A stretch of 64,000 nucleotides of DNA from Escherichia coli. Lineage in GTDB: Bacteria > Pseudomonadota > Gammaproteobacteria > Enterobacterales > Enterobacteriaceae. The notes under the pieces are model-generated. The model saw only the letters and a program-made list of their open reading frames with translations, did no database searches and was not told the origin of the DNA. Both the position numbers and the translations under genes were made by a program. Below are positions 1-63,242 of the stretch, one piece after another. The stretch's first letter is position 1. Every line of letters starts with the position of its first letter. Location of the stretch: assembly GCF_030384885.1 (NCBI RefSeq), contig NZ_CP128615.1, one strand, 5' to 3'.

Positions 1-2
1 AG

Positions 3-1565
3 ATGCCTCTGATCACGCGGCTTATGCTGCAAAACTTTAAAAAGTTTCCGGAACTGGACCTGCGCTTCACTCATGACCGTAACATTCTGGTCGGGGATAA
101 TGAGTCCGGGAAAAGCACGATTCTGCTGGCCCTTGACCTTGTGCTGAGCGACAGCCGGCACCGGGTCGAGGCATTGGGTGTGGAATCGCTCCTGTCCCAG
201 TCAGCAGTCAGGCAGTTTCAGGAAGGTGAGCGCCGCGCCGATCGGTTACCCGTGCTGACAGCTGATGTTTTCCTGAGTAATGGGGGAGATCCTGACCTGA
301 ACGGCAGGCAAAATCTGGCGGGTATCGATGCGGATGGTCTCAGAATGCGCATTGCACCCATGACGGAGGAATACGGTCAGGATATACATCATGTCCTGCA
401 GCAGGATCCCGATAATTTTCCCTATGAATACTATTCCGTGCGGTTCAGCACCTTCTCCGGGGGGCATTTTGCCGGCTTCAGACGCTATCTGCGCCATCTG
501 CTGTTAGACAGTGCACGCATCGATAACGAGCACGCCGCACAGGAATATACGCGCACAGTTTACAGCGTCAATGTGCCGGTAGCCGATCGGTACCGGCTTG
601 AAAACAGTTACCGGCAACAGAAAATGCACTTCTGCACCCGGCATCTGTCAGCCATAAACGACACGCTGGATACGTATCAGTTTGGCGTGCGTTCCGGTGC
701 TAAATCAGGTCTTGAGGCGAATCTGGACATTACCGAGGACGGTATTTCCATTCGTCACCGTGGAAAAGGAAGGCAGTGCTTCATCAAAACAGAGTTTGCA
801 CTGCAGCGGCATCAGCAGCAGGGAGAGCTCCACGCACTGTTGCTTGAGGAGCCGGAGAATCATCTCAGCCATGTCAGTATGAAGAGGCTGGTTAATCAGC
901 TTGCAACTGAACGGCAGACGCAGGTGTTTATTGCCACACACAGCAGCCATATCTCATCCCGCCTCGATCTGCGTAAGGCAATCCTCCTCGGGTCTGCCCG
1001 ACCGGTACTGATGAATGAACTTTCCGCTGAGACTGCCGCCTTCTTCATGAAAGCACCGGACAATAATGTGCTGGAATTTGCGCTGGCCAGACGTGTGCTG
1101 CTCGTGGAGGGGGATGCTGAGTTTATTCTGATCGAGGCCTTTTATCGCCGCCTGTATGGCAGGTCGCCGGAGGATGACGGGGTTCACATCATCGCTATCG
1201 GCGGAACGAGTTTCCGTCGTTATCTTGAACTGGCCCGTCTTCTGGAAAATCGCGTCGCGGCCCTTCGTGATAATGACGGCAACTATCAGCAAAACTGCGA
1301 TGAACGCTATGCTGACGTGCTTTGTTCCCGCTCCCGGGTATTTGCTGATCGCGATAACACCCGATCCACATTTGAAATCTGCCTGTATCAGGATAACGCT
1401 GGTCTGTGTGATGCGCTTTTCCGCGGAACACGCCGGACACTCACGGTGCAGGAATACATGCTGGCCAATAAGGCAGAAGCAGCATTCCGGCTGTTACAGC
1501 TGCACGCCGAAGAGCTGACAGTACCTGATTATATTCAGGAGGCACTGGCATGGATAAGAGAGTGA
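3..1565 (+). CDS. OLD-family ABC-type ATPase with C-terminal Toprim-like nuclease domain (GajA-like / class 1 OLD)
   Basis: 520-aa ORF; Walker A GDNESGKST, Walker B LLEEPE, C-terminal VLLVEGDAEF...RDNDGN Toprim-like motifs; stop overlaps start of downstream helicase gene. Confidence 0.75.
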   Translation: MPLITRLMLQNFKKFPELDLRFTHDRNILVGDNESGKSTILLALDLVLSDSRHRVEALGVESLLSQSAVRQFQEGERRADRLPVLTADVFLSNGGDPDLNGRQNLAGIDADGLRMRIAPMTEEYGQDIHHVLQQDPDNFPYEYYSVRFSTFSGGHFAGFRRYLRHLLLDSARIDNEHAAQEYTRTVYSVNVPVADRYRLENSYRQQKMHFCTRHLSAINDTLDTYQFGVRSGAKSGLEANLDITEDGISIRHRGKGRQCFIKTEFALQRHQQQGELHALLLEEPENHLSHVSMKRLVNQLATERQTQVFIATHSSHISSRLDLRKAILLGSARPVLMNELSAETAAFFMKAPDNNVLEFALARRVLLVEGDAEFILIEAFYRRLYGRSPEDDGVHIIAIGGTSFRRYLELARLLENRVAALRDNDGNYQQNCDERYADVLCSRSRVFADRDNTRSTFEICLYQDNAGLCDALFRGTRRTLTVQEYMLANKAEAAFRLLQLHAEELTVPDYIQEALAWIRE

Positions 1566-2572
1566 TATTTGCGGTTGCCGGCTCGGGCAAGACCACGCTG
1601 CTGATACAGCGGTTGAGTGAGGACCGGCGGACGCTGATCCTGACCTTCACCGTGAATAATGAAGCGCATCTCCGGGCGCAGATTATCAGACGTTTTGGCT
1701 TTATCCCGGACGGGATCAGGGTGATGACCTGGTTTGAGTTTCTGCACGGTTTTTGCTTCAGGCCTTTCCTGCAGGAGCAGCTGGCATCGCGTGGGCTGAG
1801 CTTCGACCAGCCCCCACCCAGAATACCGCGCACGAATGCCCGGCATTATCAGGATCCCGCCGGACGGCTGTATCACCGGAGGCTCGCACACTTACTCACA
1901 GCCCGGGGGCTGCTGCCAGATATCCGTACCCGGCTTGCCCGTTACTACGATGAACTGCTTGTCGATGAAGTCCAGGACTTTGCCGGACATGACTTTAATT
2001 TTCTGCTGGAGCTCTGCCGCGCGGAAATCACTGTGCTCTGTTGCGGCGATTTTTATCAACATACCTTTGATACAAGCCATGACGGCAACGTTAATTCAAC
2101 GCTGCACGATGACATTACGCGATATGAGGCCCGCTTCGACGCAGCAGGTTTCACGGTTGACCGGGACACGCTCAACCGGACATGGCGTTGCTCAGCTTCA
2201 GTGTGCGAGTTTATCACCGGACAACTGAACATCCGTATCGCTGCCCATGGGATACATGCCACCCTGATTGAAACGATCACAGATGCAGAGCGCACAGCCA
2301 CCCTGCACGCCGATAATACGGTGATTAAGCTCTTCTATCGTGAACATCACCGTTACGGCTGCTATTCCATGAACTGGGGCGTCAGTAAAGGGCTCGACCA
2401 CTTTCAGGATGTCTGCATTGTGATGGGATCTTCCCACTGGAAGCTTCTGACCCGTCAGGAACTGGCAGCCCTTCCACCGTCGTCCCGTAACAGGCTGTAC
2501 GTGGCATGCTCACGGGCGCGCGGCAACATTTATTTTGTTCCCGAAATTCATCTGCGCCGATTCCGGAACTGA
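1550..2572 (+). CDS. compact UvrD/Rep-like SF1 helicase (GajB-like partner of the OLD nuclease)
   Basis: 340-aa ORF; AGSGKTT Walker A, DEVQDF motif II, YVACSRARG C-terminal motif; 16-bp overlap with upstream gene. Confidence 0.7.
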   Translation: MDKRVIFAVAGSGKTTLLIQRLSEDRRTLILTFTVNNEAHLRAQIIRRFGFIPDGIRVMTWFEFLHGFCFRPFLQEQLASRGLSFDQPPPRIPRTNARHYQDPAGRLYHRRLAHLLTARGLLPDIRTRLARYYDELLVDEVQDFAGHDFNFLLELCRAEITVLCCGDFYQHTFDTSHDGNVNSTLHDDITRYEARFDAAGFTVDRDTLNRTWRCSASVCEFITGQLNIRIAAHGIHATLIETITDAERTATLHADNTVIKLFYREHHRYGCYSMNWGVSKGLDHFQDVCIVMGSSHWKLLTRQELAALPPSSRNRLYVACSRARGNIYFVPEIHLRRFRN

Positions 2573-2699
2573 GTCAGCTGCTTCTCAGTCGGGCACAATT
2601 CAGAAATAAAGCTGTATGGCCAACGATGTCACTTCAGGCTGGAAAAGTGCGGATCCGGTTTTGCCTTTTTTCGGATCTGAGCGGGAAAAGTGAGAAACC

Positions 2700-2861
2700 A
2701 ACATAGGTGTAACATATCCATATGCCGGGCATCTGCATAGGCAAAGCATACGCATATACCTACCATCTGCATATGTAACACCTATACAAGCCGGGCTTGC
2801 AGGCATATACTTCACCTATGCGGGAATACTCCCTGGCACACTCAGCATATGAGGAAAAACC
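2700..2861 (+). promoter_or_regulatory. putative vagCD promoter/operator (inverted repeat ATAGGTGT/ACACCTAT, CATCTGCATA direct repeats)
   Basis: repeat-rich region immediately upstream of vagC; a related repeat-rich region precedes the second vagC copy at 58860-59026. Confidence 0.4.
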
Positions 2862-3092
2862 ATGCGCACAGTTTCGATATTTAAAAACGGCAATAACCGC
2901 GCCATCCGTCTGCCCCGGGACCTGGATTTTGATGGCGTCAGCGAGCTGGAGATCGTCCGGGAAGGGGACAGCATCATTCTGCGTCCCGTCCGGCCGACCT
3001 GGGGCTCGTTCGCGCAGCTGGACAGGGCCGATCCGGACTTTATGGCGGAGCGTGAGGATGTGGTCAGCGATGAAGGACGCTTTGAGCCATGA
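2862..3092 (+). CDS. vagC: VagC/VapB-type antitoxin (AbrB/SpoVT fold)
   Basis: 76-aa ORF MRTVSIFKNGNNRAIRLPRDL...; 4-bp overlap with downstream PIN toxin. Confidence 0.9.
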   Translation: MRTVSIFKNGNNRAIRLPRDLDFDGVSELEIVREGDSIILRPVRPTWGSFAQLDRADPDFMAEREDVVSDEGRFEP

Positions 3093-3505
3093 AGAAAACC
3101 TGGATGCTCGACACCAACATCTGCTCGTTCATCATGCGCGAGCAGCCGGCAGCGGTGCTGAAGCGCCTGGAGCAGGCGGTGCTGCGCGGTGATCGCATTG
3201 TGGTCTCGGCCGTGACGTATGCCGAGATGCGCTTCGGCGCCACCGGCCCGAAGGCCTCGCCGCGCCATATTCAGCTGGTCGACGCGTTCTGCGCGCGCCT
3301 CGATGCCGTCCTGCCCTGGGACCGCGCCGCGGTGGACGCCACGACGGACATCCGGGTGGCGCTGCGCCTAGCCGGGACGCCGATCGGCCCGAATGACACG
3401 GCCATTGCCGGGCACGCCATCGCGGCGGGCGCCATCCTGGTGACGAACAATGTGAGAGAGTTTGCGCGGGTCCCGGGCCTGGTGCTGGAAGACTGGGTGA
3501 AATAA
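3089..3505 (+). CDS. vagD: VagD/VapC PIN-domain toxin
   Basis: 138-aa ORF MKKTWMLDTNICSFIM... with PIN acidic residues; overlaps vagC stop. Confidence 0.9.
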   Translation: MKKTWMLDTNICSFIMREQPAAVLKRLEQAVLRGDRIVVSAVTYAEMRFGATGPKASPRHIQLVDAFCARLDAVLPWDRAAVDATTDIRVALRLAGTPIGPNDTAIAGHAIAAGAILVTNNVREFARVPGLVLEDWVK

Positions 3506-58456: not shown

Positions 58457-58859
58457 GTCCTTTCCTCAGTTGAATAGTTAGCCGTGCAATTTTACCACAC
58501 CTCAATCATCGTCAGATGAGTGCCACTCTGTCGCGACAGTGACTTTCACGAGAGTGATTTTCACATACTAAAATAATAAGCAGCCATATAACAACGTAAT
58601 TAAATTACCTGACGGCCGCTCTGGCCGGATCCGACTTTTATGTTATTCCACAGTTTCCGGAAGTGTACCACGCACACGGAATAACCACAGCGCCCTTTCA
58701 GGGTGGTGAGCGGCCGGTCACGGGGCAGGGGAGGGGCACAACATATATGGTCACTGACAGCTGGAAACACCGCTACATCTTGTGTTTCCGGGCCGCTGCG
58801 CGCCGGCGGGGCTGAATCAGATCCGGAACTGGTGGTTTTCGGATCTGCGGTGGAGAAAT

Positions 58860-59026
58860 GAGAAAACAGGATATGCGCAGCATATCCACATGCCACGCAT
58901 CTGCATAGGGCAGACATACGCATATGTCAGTCATCTGCATATGTTACACCTATACAGACCAGTCCGGCAGGCATATACTGCACATATGTACTCACACATC
59001 ATGCATGATCAGCCGGAGGAACATCC
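58860..59026 (+). promoter_or_regulatory. putative promoter/operator of second vagC copy (CATATG / CATCTGCATA repeats)
   Basis: repeat pattern related to, but diverged from, 2700-2861. Confidence 0.4.
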
Positions 59027-59257
59027 ATGCGCACAGTTTCGATATTTAAAAACGGCAATAACCGCGCCATCCGTCTGCCCCGGGACCTGGATTTTGACGG
59101 CGTCAGCGAGCTGGAGATCGTCCGGGAAGGGGACAGCATCATTCTGCGTCCCGTCCGGCCGACCTGGGGCTCGTTCGCGCAGCTGGACAGGGCCGATCCG
59201 GACTTTATGGCGGAGCGTGAGGATGTGGTCAGCGATGAAGGACGCTTTGAGCCATGA
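59027..59257 (+). CDS. vagC: VagC/VapB-type antitoxin, second copy
   Basis: 76-aa protein identical to the first copy; two synonymous DNA differences noted. Confidence 0.9.
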   Translation: MRTVSIFKNGNNRAIRLPRDLDFDGVSELEIVREGDSIILRPVRPTWGSFAQLDRADPDFMAEREDVVSDEGRFEP

Positions 59258-59349
59258 AGAAAACCTGGATGCTCGACACTAACATCTGCTCGTTCATCAT
59301 GCGCGAGCAGCCGGCAGCGGTGCTGAAGCGCCTGGAGCAGGCGGTGCTG
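59254..59349 (+). pseudogene. vagD: vagD (PIN toxin), first ~32 codons only, truncated by IS21-family element
   Basis: MKKTWMLDTNICSFIMREQPAAVLKRLEQAVL then IS terminus TGTCAACGCC... Confidence 0.85.
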
Positions 59350-59407
59350 TCAACGCCACGATGTTTGACCGTTATTTGCCATTTTCATGCCCGCTAAGAT
59401 ACTTTCG

Positions 59408-60191
<784 letters not shown>

Positions 60192-60195
<4 letters not shown>

Positions 60196-60833
60196 AACAG
60201 CTCCTCATAGGCACTCAGTGGTCGATGTTCCACCTGACTGACCTGCTGCCAGAGCGGGGCGTGATGCTCCGGCACTGTCTGCCAGCCAGACGATGCCGGA
60301 CAGAGGCGATGTGAGGCCACCAGTTTCTCATTACTGTAGATCCGCAACTCGTCATCCAGCGATATTCGTATCGATACTGGCTGACCACACAGCGCTTCGG
60401 GAACGCTGTAACGATTACCACCAACCTCGATATAGCTGTCCCAGGACACATGGCGGATGTCGAAGTAACTGGTATCGAAGTCCGTATCCGGTAACGGCTG
60501 CAGATGTTCCTGCTCCAGCGCGAAGCGCTGTTCCGGCGTTTCTTTGAACTGGCGAAGCTCCCGTTTGTCAGCCACATCGGCTATCCATTGCTCCAGTTGT
60601 TGATTAACATGAGTGAAGCTGTCGAACCTGCGGTACCGGACGAAGAAGTTCTCCTTGAGGTATTTCACCATCCGCTCAACCTTACCTTTTGTTCTGGCCC
60701 TGCGTGGACGGCATGCCCGTGGCAGGAAGTTATAGTGGTCGGCCAGCAACAGGAATCCGGAGTTGAACACGACTTTCCCGTTGTTATTCTTCAGCACCGC
60801 AGCCTTCTGGTTATCAACCAGCACCGTTTTCAC
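60192..60833 (-). pseudogene. istA: IS21-family IstA transposase, C-terminal 213 codons only
   Basis: ORF ...[23 protein letters not shown]...; overlaps istB start. Confidence 0.75.
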
Positions 60834-61058: not shown

Positions 61059-61394
61059 CCTTTTTTGAACAGCCTTACCTATTGCTATAGAGGGGAACTC
61101 CTACGTTATACGCCGCTTTCAGGGGATTCGACCTTAATGAGACAACTCAAATATGATCGACAACTTAAACGCGATAGTTGCTGATAAAATCAATCCATTA
61201 CGCGTTTCAATTGATTAAATAATGCACTTAATGTACAAAAATTCCCGATCTCAAAACTGAACCCTAAAGATACCAGGCATCTCCCCCAGGAAGCGCCCTC
61301 ATGCGTTTTCCTGTTCCGCCCCTGCCACCTACCTTCTGTTTCATACTTGTTGTATTATTGTTTTTGTTTTCAATCCCCAAGGAGACGTCGCTAT

Positions 61395-61562
61395 ATGACT
61401 GTGCGGGAGACAGAGGAAAACATTGAACAAATCTTCCCTGAGCTTTCGAACTTAATTGATATTATTAATAAATGGCTTTCCCATGGAAACATTGATCCTG
61501 AACTGGCACACTTCATCATTTATCTTCTTGATTACCTAACCACCACACACAAAAGCATATAA
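61395..61562 (+). CDS. small hypothetical protein (55 aa)
   Basis: MTVRETEENIEQIFPELSNLIDIINKWLSHGNIDPELAHFIIYLLDYL...; followed by a strong terminator; RBS weak. Confidence 0.35.
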   Translation: MTVRETEENIEQIFPELSNLIDIINKWLSHGNIDPELAHFIIYLLDYLTTTHKSI

Positions 61563-61677
61563 AAATTTTCCTTGCACATCCATTTTTTTGCGAATATTAT
61601 TATTCCTGCTGAATATGATTCAATATCGCACGCTACTCATCCATCCCAGGATAATGAGTACATAGGTTGAAGTTTCA

Positions 61678-61705
61678 ACACCCCCATTACGGGGGTGTTT
61701 TTTTT
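61678..61705 (+). terminator. rho-independent terminator
   Basis: ACACCCCCATTACGGGGGTGT followed by T8. Confidence 0.7.
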
Positions 61706-61823
61706 ACCAATAAACACAAATCACACCATCGCCATACTCTGTTTGCCAGACATCGATTGGTAAATATGCGTAACTCGCTATAATACAAAAAGAAAAATCA
61801 GAACCAGAAACCAGTTTCCAGAT

Positions 61824-61850
61824 AAAAAACACCCTCCCGAAGGAGGGGAC
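61824..61850 (-). terminator. rho-independent terminator (minus strand)
   Basis: reverse complement of CCCTCC-CGAA-GGAGGG hairpin followed by a T-run. Confidence 0.6.
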
Positions 61851-62180
61851 AGACACATTCATATTTCCCAAAACAGGAATTTTTATTTTTATGACGCATT
61901 AATGAAGTTACTTCATCTCCAGTAGATTAACTTCATTTAAAGTGGCGATCAATCATATTTATTACGACTCTAAACTATTACAACAACCACAATAAGATAT
62001 CACCTCAAATATAAAAGATAACTCTTACAAAAACGTTCCGAAAACAAAAAATACAGATAAACACCAATAAAAAACAGAAAACTCTTACACATTTAAAGAT
62101 GGTAAAATAATATAGAACTGTTAGTCTAATGGAGAAGGCGCATCTGATTCAGAGCAATCTATTGCGAAGAATCAGAGTAA

Positions 62181-62219
62181 CAGGGCCCCATGATATAATC
62201 ATGGGGCCCTGTTGCTTTT
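62181..62219. terminator. strong near-perfect hairpin, possibly a bidirectional terminator
   Basis: CAGGGCCCCATGA-TATAA-TCATGGGGCCCTG followed by TTGCTTTT. Confidence 0.6.
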
Positions 62220-62463
62220 ACAGATGTAAAAACGACCAATCATTTAACATCTGTTATCGGCACCGCCCCGGACGGGTTCGGCGCAAATATGGTATGGTAC
62301 CAGCCCGGCAATTCACCTGCCGTGCAATCTGACGAAGCAGTACCGGCGTATGCAGATATATCGTCCAGACATATCTGCCGCATTCAGGCGGTGAGTAAAG
62401 CCTTCTCTCTCAAAAGAGGAGCAACAGTTATCCACAGATTCTGGGGATAACTGCGAAAAGAAT

Positions 62464-62604
62464 ATGTGCCAGGAAAGTCGGCTCCCGGGAAAAAGACCGC
62501 TGGCGGCGCAGCTGCTGGATACGAAAGCTGAGCTGAAAGGATCCCGGGAGGACGTCCGTAAACTTCAGTCCCTGGCCCGTCATGACGGGAAGGTGAAAAA
62601 GTGA
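62464..62604 (+). CDS. small hypothetical protein (46 aa)
   Basis: MCQESRLPGKRPLAAQLLDTKAELKGSREDVRKLQSLARHDGKVKK; stop overlaps GTG start of the next ORF (GTGA); below the ORF-track cutoff. Confidence 0.3.
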   Translation: MCQESRLPGKRPLAAQLLDTKAELKGSREDVRKLQSLARHDGKVKK

Positions 62605-63242
62605 ATGCGGATACCTGGACCCGCCTGCAGGCCTTCCGACATGCTCTGGAGCTGACTTCCTGTGAGGCTTCTCTCACCGCCGGGTATGATCACCTGAAGG
62701 ATTTCCCGGCCGGTTGCAGCGAGCTGGCCAGCCAGACGCTGACTGATTATCTGACGGAAGACGGCAGCAACCTGTACTCCTGTATTGTCGGTATGCAGTG
62801 GGATAATGGTCCTGGCAGATACGGCCACGTCATTGCCGCCCCTGCCAGGGACTATATCGACCTGACCCTTGATCAGTTTCCAGGCTATCATAACCGGATT
62901 GTGGCAGAGCCCGTTGAGTCCGGCGGACAGCTCGCGGCAGACCTCAACAGGGAGCCTGCCATCAGTACAGCTGATGGAATAGTGGCCAGCGCATCAGATA
63001 AGGTTAATTACATTACTGAACAGAAAAATCGCCAGCCAATGGTGATCATTACAGAATGTTACAAGCTGATCAGAATAACGGCAAGATTTATACCAATGTG
63101 CCAGTCATCTCAACTCTTCCAGCACCAGGTATTCCCTCGCTTATTTATCATTTCAGACGTTGGCTCCTGCAGTTTGTCCAGGAACACCTTAGATCGTTTA
63201 GCTACTGACTGGAAGGTGACACTGTCCATCCTGTCGCTATAG
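62601..63242 (+). CDS. hypothetical protein (GTG start; 3' part may be spurious)
   Basis: 213-aa ORF; N-terminal ~150 aa look protein-like; 3' end overlaps a convergent ORF. Confidence 0.35.
   Translation: MNADTWTRLQAFRHALELTSCEASLTAGYDHLKDFPAGCSELASQTLTDYLTEDGSNLYSCIVGMQWDNGPGRYGHVIAAPARDYIDLTLDQFPGYHNRIVAEPVESGGQLAADLNREPAISTADGIVASASDKVNYITEQKNRQPMVIITECYKLIRITARFIPMCQSSQLFQHQVFPRLFIISDVGSCSLSRNTLDRLATDWKVTLSILSL

Follow-up and report, generated by a model that had tools for sequence, protein, structure and literature searches.

In ColE1-like plasmids, the small RNA Rcd is transcribed from the accessory side of the cer site towards the XerC and XerD arms, with rcd and RNA II being co-directional (PMC2831885). 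Two of six intact cer plasmids, p30EVA1-2 and pCR-HvKP1-p5, possess a terminator composed of an A-tract, a GC hairpin and a T-tract 20-25 nt past the XerD arm, where it divides the mob-cer unit from the cargo. F has a low copy number and a resolution system of its own (ResD/rfsF), and hok/sok-type systems are present elsewhere on F-like plasmids. UptR is a known small RNA of the same plasmids. The locus considered here had been proposed in the original prediction to encode either a trans-acting small RNA or a type I antitoxin RNA of about 100 nt (62100-62222), but the evidence favours, by a modest preponderance, a different explanation: the large palindrome of the candidate is an orphan terminator-type hairpin of a decayed ColE1-type plasmid adjoining RepFIB. 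The literature searched, on UptR, on transcriptomes of the F plasmid, on plasmid sRNAs and on the sequence of the hairpin, contained no description of this locus.

The locus lies in a 64-kb stretch of Escherichia coli DNA, referred to as the window, between the pif/ccd side and the RepFIB repB gene. The region is also present in the F plasmid (NC_002483, ~39.3-40.3 kb), and some 365 F-like plasmids carry it, for the most part with identities of at least 99%. For the analysis of variants five plasmids were aligned, and counts were taken over 367 plasmid records. As the relatives are mostly at least 99% (at least 95%) identical, missing covariation is uninformative either way. The flanking genes, namely a 55-aa ORF, UptR, ORF46, ORF213 and repB, are all encoded on the + strand, so that a + strand stop signal would have something to insulate. 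Searches of ORF213, ORF46 and the 55-aa ORF against Pfam returned nothing.

The surroundings had been described as an AT-rich gene desert. They are indeed AT-rich, with 26-31% GC at 61850-62150, but not empty, as UptR lies inside (61608-61699, + strand), with a full-length match to Rfam RF02568 (123.3 bits, E 2e-21). Its promoter, at 61572-61600, reads TTGCAC-17-TATTAT, and the + strand terminator at 61678-61705 belongs to it. This terminator and its convergent - strand partner at 61824-61850 were both called by a consensus scan, as had been anticipated. The latter is part of a minus-strand unit (61822-61952) with a promoter-like TTGATC-17-TAATCT (61952-61924; score of 10.5 in a position weight matrix, PWM, scan) and a terminator CCCTCC-TTCG-GGAGGG followed by seven T at 61847-61832. 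To judge from these elements, the candidate RNA of ~95 nt from this unit looks better than the 62100-62222 candidate. A further promoter-like site, TTGAAT-18-TAATAT, lies antisense to UptR on the - strand (61623-61594; PWM 10.9). UptR was also considered as a homologue of RNA I and rejected, since there is no model or sequence similarity: RNAI (RF00106), which was found in ColE1, pN18S0597 and pCR-HvKP1-p5, was unmatched at UptR at E≤10 in a 201-nt search, and the agreement between UptR and RNA I is one of position, strand and size only.

The ancestry of this DNA can be read from several fragments. A search of a phage collection had returned matches to the origins of cloning vectors. A ColE1-origin-proximal piece corresponding to the RNA II template (61265-61333) is 84-85% identical to ColE1 1116-1048, just upstream of ori, and to the pUC-type ori (E = 9e-16 and 2e-17, respectively). 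A ColE1-origin-downstream piece (62424-62468) is 84% identical to the DnaA-box region of ColE1 at 1283-1239 (E 3.6e-8) and contains two inverted DnaA-box-like sites, TTATCCACA (62428-62436) and TTATCCCCA (- strand, 62450-62442). Between these pieces lies a mobC pseudogene fragment on the - strand (62296-62437) covering residues ~4-73 and interrupted by one frameshift and a single stop (tblastn E 2.3e-4), of which 62312-62395 matches mobC of pN18S0597 at positions 212-317 by blastn. Read rightward, the matches to pN18S0597 run 4334 -> 2157 -> 317 -> 212 and then wrap to the ori-downstream piece. Both the order and the strands of these matches agree with the circle of pN18S0597. Judged by them, 61236-62495 is colinear with an entire ColE1-type mobilizable plasmid that was opened at the origin and heavily deleted.

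The fourth fragment is a partial cer-type Xer site on the - strand (62245-62311), which consists of the accessory-region end, the XerC arm GGTGCCGATAA (62264-62254) and the central CAGATG. When a profile built from six cer sites, ColE1 cer among them, was run with nhmmer, the window gave this match alone (62311->62245, - strand, E 1.4e-12), which spans model positions 199-260 of 281 and stops at the XerD arm. The XerC arm and the 6-8-bp central region are present, as GGTGCCGATAA-CAGATG aligns to GGTGCCGCTAA-GAGATG and similar sites, and a 43-bp core (62245-62288) is common to ~550 small mobilizable ColE1-type plasmids. The XerD arm, by contrast, is disrupted, with TTAAATGATTG in place of the near-invariant TTATGGTAAAT, so that the consensus TTATG(G/T)T(A/T)AAT is not matched. 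The ~180-bp accessory DNA with the ArgR box is missing too, as homology stops ~45 bp from the XerC arm, where the mobC fragment follows. A functional cer site at 62237-62311 was ruled out because both the XerD arm and the accessory DNA are missing. The orientation of the remnant relative to the ori remnants is that of all ColE1-like plasmids.

On the RepFIB side, the 46-codon ORF46 (62464-62604, + strand) is a truncated gene, the final 34 residues of which match the C-terminus of a KfrA-like DNA-binding protein, with 71-76% identity in tblastn to the KfrA-like proteins of pO157 and Serratia (E 1e-9 to 3e-11). ORF213 (62601-63242, + strand), whose start overlaps the ORF46 stop, is a homologue of pO157p26 (40% identity, E 6e-17). 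In pO157 the order ccdAB-kfrA-orfB-repFIB is uninterrupted and the ORF213 homologue follows kfrA, while here the relic block ends at ~62495, at the start of the final 38 codons of the kfrA-like gene, and replaces its 5' ~190 codons. Together with the colinear ori, cer and mobC matches, the intact kfrA order of pO157 suggests that a ColE1-type plasmid, whole or in part, took the place of the 5' portion of kfrA in the F lineage and afterwards lost the mob genes, most of cer and ori. For the AT-rich stretch that separates UptR from the palindrome, no homologue was found in small plasmids, other plasmids or phages outside F-like plasmids, so that its arrival as ‘cargo’ of the captured plasmid is assumed.

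The most conspicuous element of the locus is a 35-bp perfect palindrome (62179-62213, both strands) with the 16-bp arms AACAGGGCCCCATGAT and ATCATGGGGCCCTGTT and a 3-nt loop, ATA. On the + strand the stem lengthens to 19 pairs (62176-62216) via G.U pairs, and the hairpin reaches -35.2 (+) and -30.5 (-) kcal/mol, compared with -16.5 kcal/mol for the UptR terminator. It is the longest perfect inverted repeat of the window, where 30 block shuffles yielded arms of 8-12 bp at most. The palindrome sits at a sharp composition boundary, from 26-31% to 49-60% GC, and lies 23 nt past the cer remnant on its XerD side. In E. coli genomes it occurs as a single copy, and an exact-pattern scan gave no match in viral contigs and none in 100,044 species-representative genomes, which implies that it is not a repeat family, a MITE end or a REP-like element. 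An attC-like site was ruled out by inspection, as the palindrome is perfect and R'/R'' motifs do not fit.

The hairpin has the stable G+C-rich stem-loop of an intrinsic terminator, and it is followed on the + strand by the U-containing tail GCTTTTACA (62214-62222). How good this tail is depends on where the stem is taken to end: past the full stem the + strand reads GCTTTTAC, an interrupted T-run with 4 T in 8 only, or GCUUUUAC, if the basal A-U pairs open the tail is TGTTGCTTTT, and past the G+C core it is UGUUGCUUUU. The corresponding - strand tails are ACTCTGATTCTT and UGUUACUCU. The near-perfect terminator hairpin that had been predicted is real as far as the hairpin with its perfect 16-bp arms is concerned, but a consensus terminator scan demanding at least five T in 8 called it on neither strand. 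The very stable hairpin, the U-containing tail and the smaller hairpin preceding it, together with the lack of a credible ORF, make an RNA 3' end at ~62213-62219 plausible.

These properties suggest a terminator-type activity of the palindrome. The 16-19-bp G+C-rich stem would form in nascent RNA of either strand ahead of a U-tract (UGUUGCUUUU on +, UGUUACUCU on -), and stem and U-containing tract would release RNA polymerase in a factor-independent manner. On the + strand the palindrome would stop untranslated transcripts that begin in the AT-rich block and that would, without it, run into the cer and mobC remnants, the truncated kfrA-ORF213 pair and RepFIB. Whatever passes through the mobC/cer remnant on the - strand would be stopped as well. 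Three features speak against a terminator, namely the interrupted U-tract, the failure of the scan to call it and the overly strong stem. A perfect stem of 16-19 bp at -35 kcal/mol far exceeds the needs of ordinary terminators. A hairpin at the equivalent place is also found in only two of the six intact cer plasmids.

A further possibility is that the palindrome acts only as DNA and has no RNA role: it would be a leftover or by-product from the joining of the AT-rich block and the cer remnant by rearrangement, and would serve mainly as a hotspot for deletion. Its position exactly at the mosaic and composition junction would suit such an origin, as would its perfection, which most terminators lack, and the absence of any other occurrence in the genomes and viral contigs scanned; a natural deletion, described below, also ends within its left arm between 9-bp direct repeats. 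On the other hand, its place beside the cer remnant matches that of the terminators of intact cer plasmids, it is followed by a T-run on the strand that is coding throughout the region, and a 35-bp perfect palindrome is unlikely to arise at a junction by chance. A role confined to DNA is considered unlikely.

The origin of transcripts that would reach the palindrome was assessed with two promoter scans. The original prediction paired TTTAAA (62092-62097) with TAATAT (62108-62113), but the spacer between them is only 10 bp, which is not sigma-70 geometry, so the two cannot work jointly as a sigma-70 promoter. The sole usable -35 for the candidate RNA is CTTACA (62084-62089), which gives a weak promoter-like site (62084-62113, + strand) in the form of CTTACA-16-AATAAT (62084-62111; 9/12 in the consensus scan) or CTTACA-18-TAATAT, with a predicted start at ~62118-62120. 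The promoter prediction that had been proposed as a check does not come out in its favour, as this only alternative ranks last of 28 in the PWM scan of 61500-62700 (1.2 kb; score 6.0) and is near chance. The consensus scan found 9 promoter-like sites per 4 kb against a chance expectation of 5.7 +/- 2.8. The PWM was built on approximate, author-supplied frequencies and has the recovery of the UptR start as its sole validation: the top score of 11.3 falls on the true promoter of UptR, with a predicted start at 61607 compared with the Rfam start at 61608.

A much stronger promoter-like site, TTGGTA-16-TATAAT, lies at 61757-61784 on the + strand (10/12, PWM 11.0, predicted start ~61791), and its hexamers are kept in all five aligned plasmids. 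Based on these scores, + strand transcripts that reach the palindrome ~430 nt downstream appear most likely to start here, and this site would chiefly supply the RNA to be stopped there, to which the site at 62084-62113 would add at most a few transcripts. The RNA upstream of the palindrome would be A/C-rich and G-poor, with a GC skew down to -0.63. Untranslated A/C-rich, G-poor transcripts are usually non-functional and Rho-sensitive. Such a transcript from 61757-61784 would be ended first by Rho and then by the hairpin.

This leaves the RNA that the locus was originally thought to make. As an independent trans-acting sRNA gene, the site at 62084-62113 would fire and produce an RNA of ~100 nt (~62118-62219) with a 25-nt single-stranded 5' region, the internal hairpin and the terminator hairpin, which would pair with plasmid or host mRNAs. 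The internal hairpin exists as claimed: TCTGATTC...GAATCAGA (62143-62176, + strand) has an inner GCAA/TTGC stem and a dG of -13.6 kcal/mol, with the arms CTGATTC and GAATCAG at 62144-62150 and 62170-62176. The 111-nt + strand RNA folds at -51 kcal/mol, compared with -25.1 +/- 3.1 for shuffles (z = -8.3), and the - strand of the same stretch folds with z = -6.5. It was also correct that no ORF of meaningful length is present, as no conserved or credible ORF fits upstream of the large hairpin. A further point for an sRNA gene is that its promoter-like site, at 9/12, stands at a suitable distance. UptR, 500 bp upstream, shares the layout of promoter, hairpin and terminator, and the -10 element and RNA body of the candidate are conserved in the ~5%-diverged RHB07 plasmids.

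Against this, the promoter has the lowest score of the region, such sites occur at chance frequency, and the -35 differs among the aligned plasmids (CTTACA, CCCACA or CCTACA). Position 62144 is A in F and in all four other aligned plasmids, which introduces an A.C mismatch into the internal stem; the perfectly paired G of the window is the minority allele. The 3' tail contains only four U's, and a four-U 3' tail is poor for Hfq-type sRNAs. A search of 58-64 kb against Rfam (15) at E≤1 returned UptR only and no family for 62100-62222; matches below the thresholds were mir-5595 (30.7 bits vs 100) and IsrM (19.1 bits vs 376). Complementarity of the candidate RNA to the rest of the window did not exceed 11 nt, and none was above chance.

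The natural variants weigh further on this question. Both the promoter-like site and the first ~22 nt of the candidate RNA fall within a 76-bp segment (62064-62139). F has this segment, and 146 of the 367 plasmid records retain it, whereas ~220 (~60%), such as NZ_CP024887, lack it and keep both hairpins. The segment is ancestral, since the RHB07 plasmids keep it. Conversely, a 235-bp segment (62184-62418), which takes in the cer remnant and the greater part of both the palindrome and the mobC fragment, is not present in RHB07-type plasmids, ~50 of the 367 records being without it. The segment lies between two 9-bp direct repeats, GAGTAACAG (62175-62183) and GAGCAACAG (62419-62427), of which the left one provides the five initial bases of the left hairpin arm, so that the deletion ends inside that arm. 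As the left repeat holds the start of the arm, the full hairpin is ancestral and the RHB07 variant is a repeat-mediated deletion. Given these repeats, a deletion appears to suit the 235-bp difference better than an insertion. The segment had also been considered as an insertion with target duplication, which was dropped because E. coli genomes have the segment in one copy only and its two ends do not form inverted repeats.

Promoter, body and terminator of the candidate are not kept together, with the promoter and 5' end gone in ~220 of 367 records and the hairpin gone in ~50 others. Both losses look like simple deletions, as would be expected of unconstrained relic DNA, which argues against a regulatory function. 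UptR, found in the same set of F-like plasmids, is kept in all variants examined. Of the proposal of a trans-acting sRNA, the stable hairpins and a plausible 3' end stand, but the weak promoter is absent from most records and there is no Rfam family; an sRNA gene of its own is unlikely, though it remains the most credible of the alternatives. Where the 76-bp segment is kept, as it is in a minority of plasmids, a ~100-nt RNA (~62118-62219) may be made; on this evidence it would be a by-product of relic DNA rather than the product of a conserved regulatory gene. UptR speaks against dismissing it as a by-product, proving that a real sRNA can exist in the same block.

The other half of the original prediction, a type I toxin-antitoxin system, would make the candidate an antitoxin RNA lying over the 5' leader of a - strand mRNA for the 30-aa peptide MCKSFLFFIGVYLYFLFSERFCKSYLLYLR (62092->62000). 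This hydrophobic ORF is indeed short, on the opposite strand and just upstream of the candidate's start, the strong - strand terminator at 61847-61832 lies downstream of it, and the hok/sok-type systems of F-like plasmids offer a precedent. It is the only nearby hydrophobic ORF, however, and lacks a Shine-Dalgarno sequence, while Phe/Leu-rich ORFs are expected by chance on a T-rich strand. Its start codon is gone in both RHB07 plasmids, in one of which two 1-bp indels disturb the frame, and the common 76-bp deletion takes the start codon as well. Upstream on the - strand there are only weak promoter sites. With the 30-aa ORF unconserved and no complementarity above 11 nt in the window, where a toxin ORF with antisense complementarity had been sought, the antitoxin idea is not supported, is already contradicted for the most part by the plasmid comparison, and appears exceedingly improbable.

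The cer remnant raises another possibility for the - strand, in which the palindrome terminates an Rcd-like RNA running from ~62282 to 62170 across the XerC/XerD core, as in ColE1 cer. The direction of Rcd transcription corresponds to the - strand here, the cer profile match reaches the Pcer-equivalent region, the - strand RNA 62290->62165 folds into three stem-loops (z -8.1), and a weak promoter-like GTGAAT-16-TACCAT is found at 62316-62289. This promoter is not convincing (PWM 6.6), however, the - strand tail is U-poor, and the site is fragmentary, its XerD arm being destroyed and its ArgR box and most accessory DNA being replaced by the mobC fragment. There is also no obvious need for an Rcd checkpoint in F, which is low-copy and has its own ResD/rfsF. 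A role of the palindrome as the terminator of an Rcd-like RNA is very unlikely.

A broader alternative is that F-like plasmids kept and use the small RNAs of the captured plasmid, with the ~100-nt + strand RNA, the Rcd-like - strand RNA or both as a second functional sRNA. Such retention is rather improbable. In this reading, UptR would sit exactly at the place expected of RNA I, and targets would be in the host or the plasmid.

Returning to the orphan terminator of a decayed plasmid, the sRNA candidate carries little weight, as it belongs to one F-like plasmid lineage and is dispensable in most of its members. The wider context carries more, since the pif/ccd-RepFIB region of F, UptR included, would be what is left of a mobilizable ColE1-type plasmid after its integration. 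Such an origin would explain the mix of strong hairpins, DnaA boxes, half a Xer site and a truncated kfrA. It also offers a testable evolutionary origin for UptR. Promoter-plus-terminator signatures in AT-rich relic plasmid DNA are poor evidence for regulatory RNAs.

Compared with known systems, the candidate resembles the type I antitoxin RNAs Sok/FlmB and SrnC of F-like plasmids in being a small structured RNA opposite a short hydrophobic plasmid ORF. It differs in that this ORF is unconserved and has no ribosome-binding site, that neither a mok/hok-like leader nor fold-back elements are present, and that the locus is dispensable in most plasmids. UptR is nearer, with the same strand, a similar size (92 nt vs ~100 nt), the same layout of promoter, small hairpin(s) and terminator, and the same plasmids. 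Nonetheless, UptR has no sequence or model similarity to the candidate, its promoter scores 11.3 compared with 6.0, its terminator is canonical with U8, and it is kept in all variants examined, whereas the candidate's promoter is deleted in most. With the cer/Rcd region of ColE1 the locus shares homology, as 62245-62311 corresponds to the XerC arm, the central region and the last ~40 bp of accessory DNA. In this remnant the XerD arm is not intact, the ArgR box and most accessory DNA are lacking, conservation does not include the promoter, and ColE1 has no counterpart of the palindrome.

The intrinsic bidirectional terminators by cer sites, such as AAAAAAGCCGCCC-ATTA-GGGCGGCTTTTTT in p30EVA1-2, differ from the palindrome in several respects. 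Its stem of 16-19 perfect pairs is about twice the usual length, its T-run is interrupted, and no intact gene ends at it. The likeness lies in a G+C-rich hairpin with a short loop, placed 20-25 nt past the XerD side. An A-containing run before the hairpin and a T-containing run after it are likewise shared, and a palindrome flanked in this way would be readable from both strands.

The block at 61236-62495 is colinear with a whole ColE1-type mobilizable plasmid that has been opened at the origin and heavily deleted. Four parts of it survive: an ori/RNA II piece at 61265-61333, the core of cer at 62245-62311, a fragment of a mobC pseudogene at 62437->62296 and, at 62424-62468, an ori DnaA-box piece. 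No description of this remnant was found in the searchable literature. At 62425-62453 lies a perfect 9-bp inverted repeat with the arms CAGTTATCC and GGATAACTG, inside which two DnaA-box-like sites, TTATCCACA and TTATCCCCA, face each other. The repeat is inherited from the region downstream of the ColE1 origin and is still present in plasmids from which both the cer remnant and the 35-bp palindrome, where the reviewed RNA candidate would end, have been deleted.

On the + strand at 62464-63242 lie ORF46, a gene for a KfrA-like DNA-binding protein reduced to its C-terminal stump, and ORF213, whose GTG start is overlapped by the ORF46 stop codon and which here stands without the kfrA promoter. 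ORF213 has no Pfam domain; its homologues, at 36-48% identity, include the gene that follows kfrA in pO157 as well as plasmid-borne matches from Serratia, Salmonella and Klebsiella.

The region from about 3000 to 28000 is not F-like, and its gene content was read through 100% identity to plasmid NZ_CP024857: it holds vapBC, a group II intron reverse transcriptase, IS110, IS1/IS903/IS3 elements and, at roughly 8.6-24.6 kb, a complete BREX type 1 operon (brxR/WYL, brxA, brxB, brxC, DUF262, pglX, pglZ, brxL). Adjacent, overlapping parts of plasmid p14EC033d match the two window ends, 1-3184 and 58820-59350, so that there are two copies of the vapB region (about 2650-3184 and 58820-59350) with about 55 kb of other DNA between them. 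Beyond the downstream copy lie a truncated vapC and frameshifted IS21 istB/istA remnants (59408-60833).

An unannotated sRNA candidate on the minus strand (61822-61952) looks better than the + strand candidate under review. A promoter-like site, TTGATC-17-TAATCT, would give rise to an RNA of about 95 nt with a hairpin at its 5' end and the terminator CCCUCC-UUCG-GGAGGG followed by U7; the hexamers, like the terminator, are conserved across the five aligned plasmids. The candidate is fully antisense to predicted + strand transcripts from TTGGTA-16-TATAAT (61757-61784).

A 55-aa ORF (MTVRETEENIEQ..., 61395-61562, +) with a good Shine-Dalgarno sequence, AAGGAG, is hypothetical in the F annotation (WP_000218294.1) and has no Pfam match; the promoter of the known sRNA UptR lies directly downstream of it. 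UptR (61608-61699, +) shows no match to the Rfam RNAI model and no detectable sequence homology to RNA I; the analogy between the two is one of position only. UptR is separated by 275 bp from the ori-proximal remnant, while in intact ColE1 replicons RNA I, of similar size and on the same strand, lies at a distance of 268-299 bp, an RNA I-like position that may hint at the origin of UptR.
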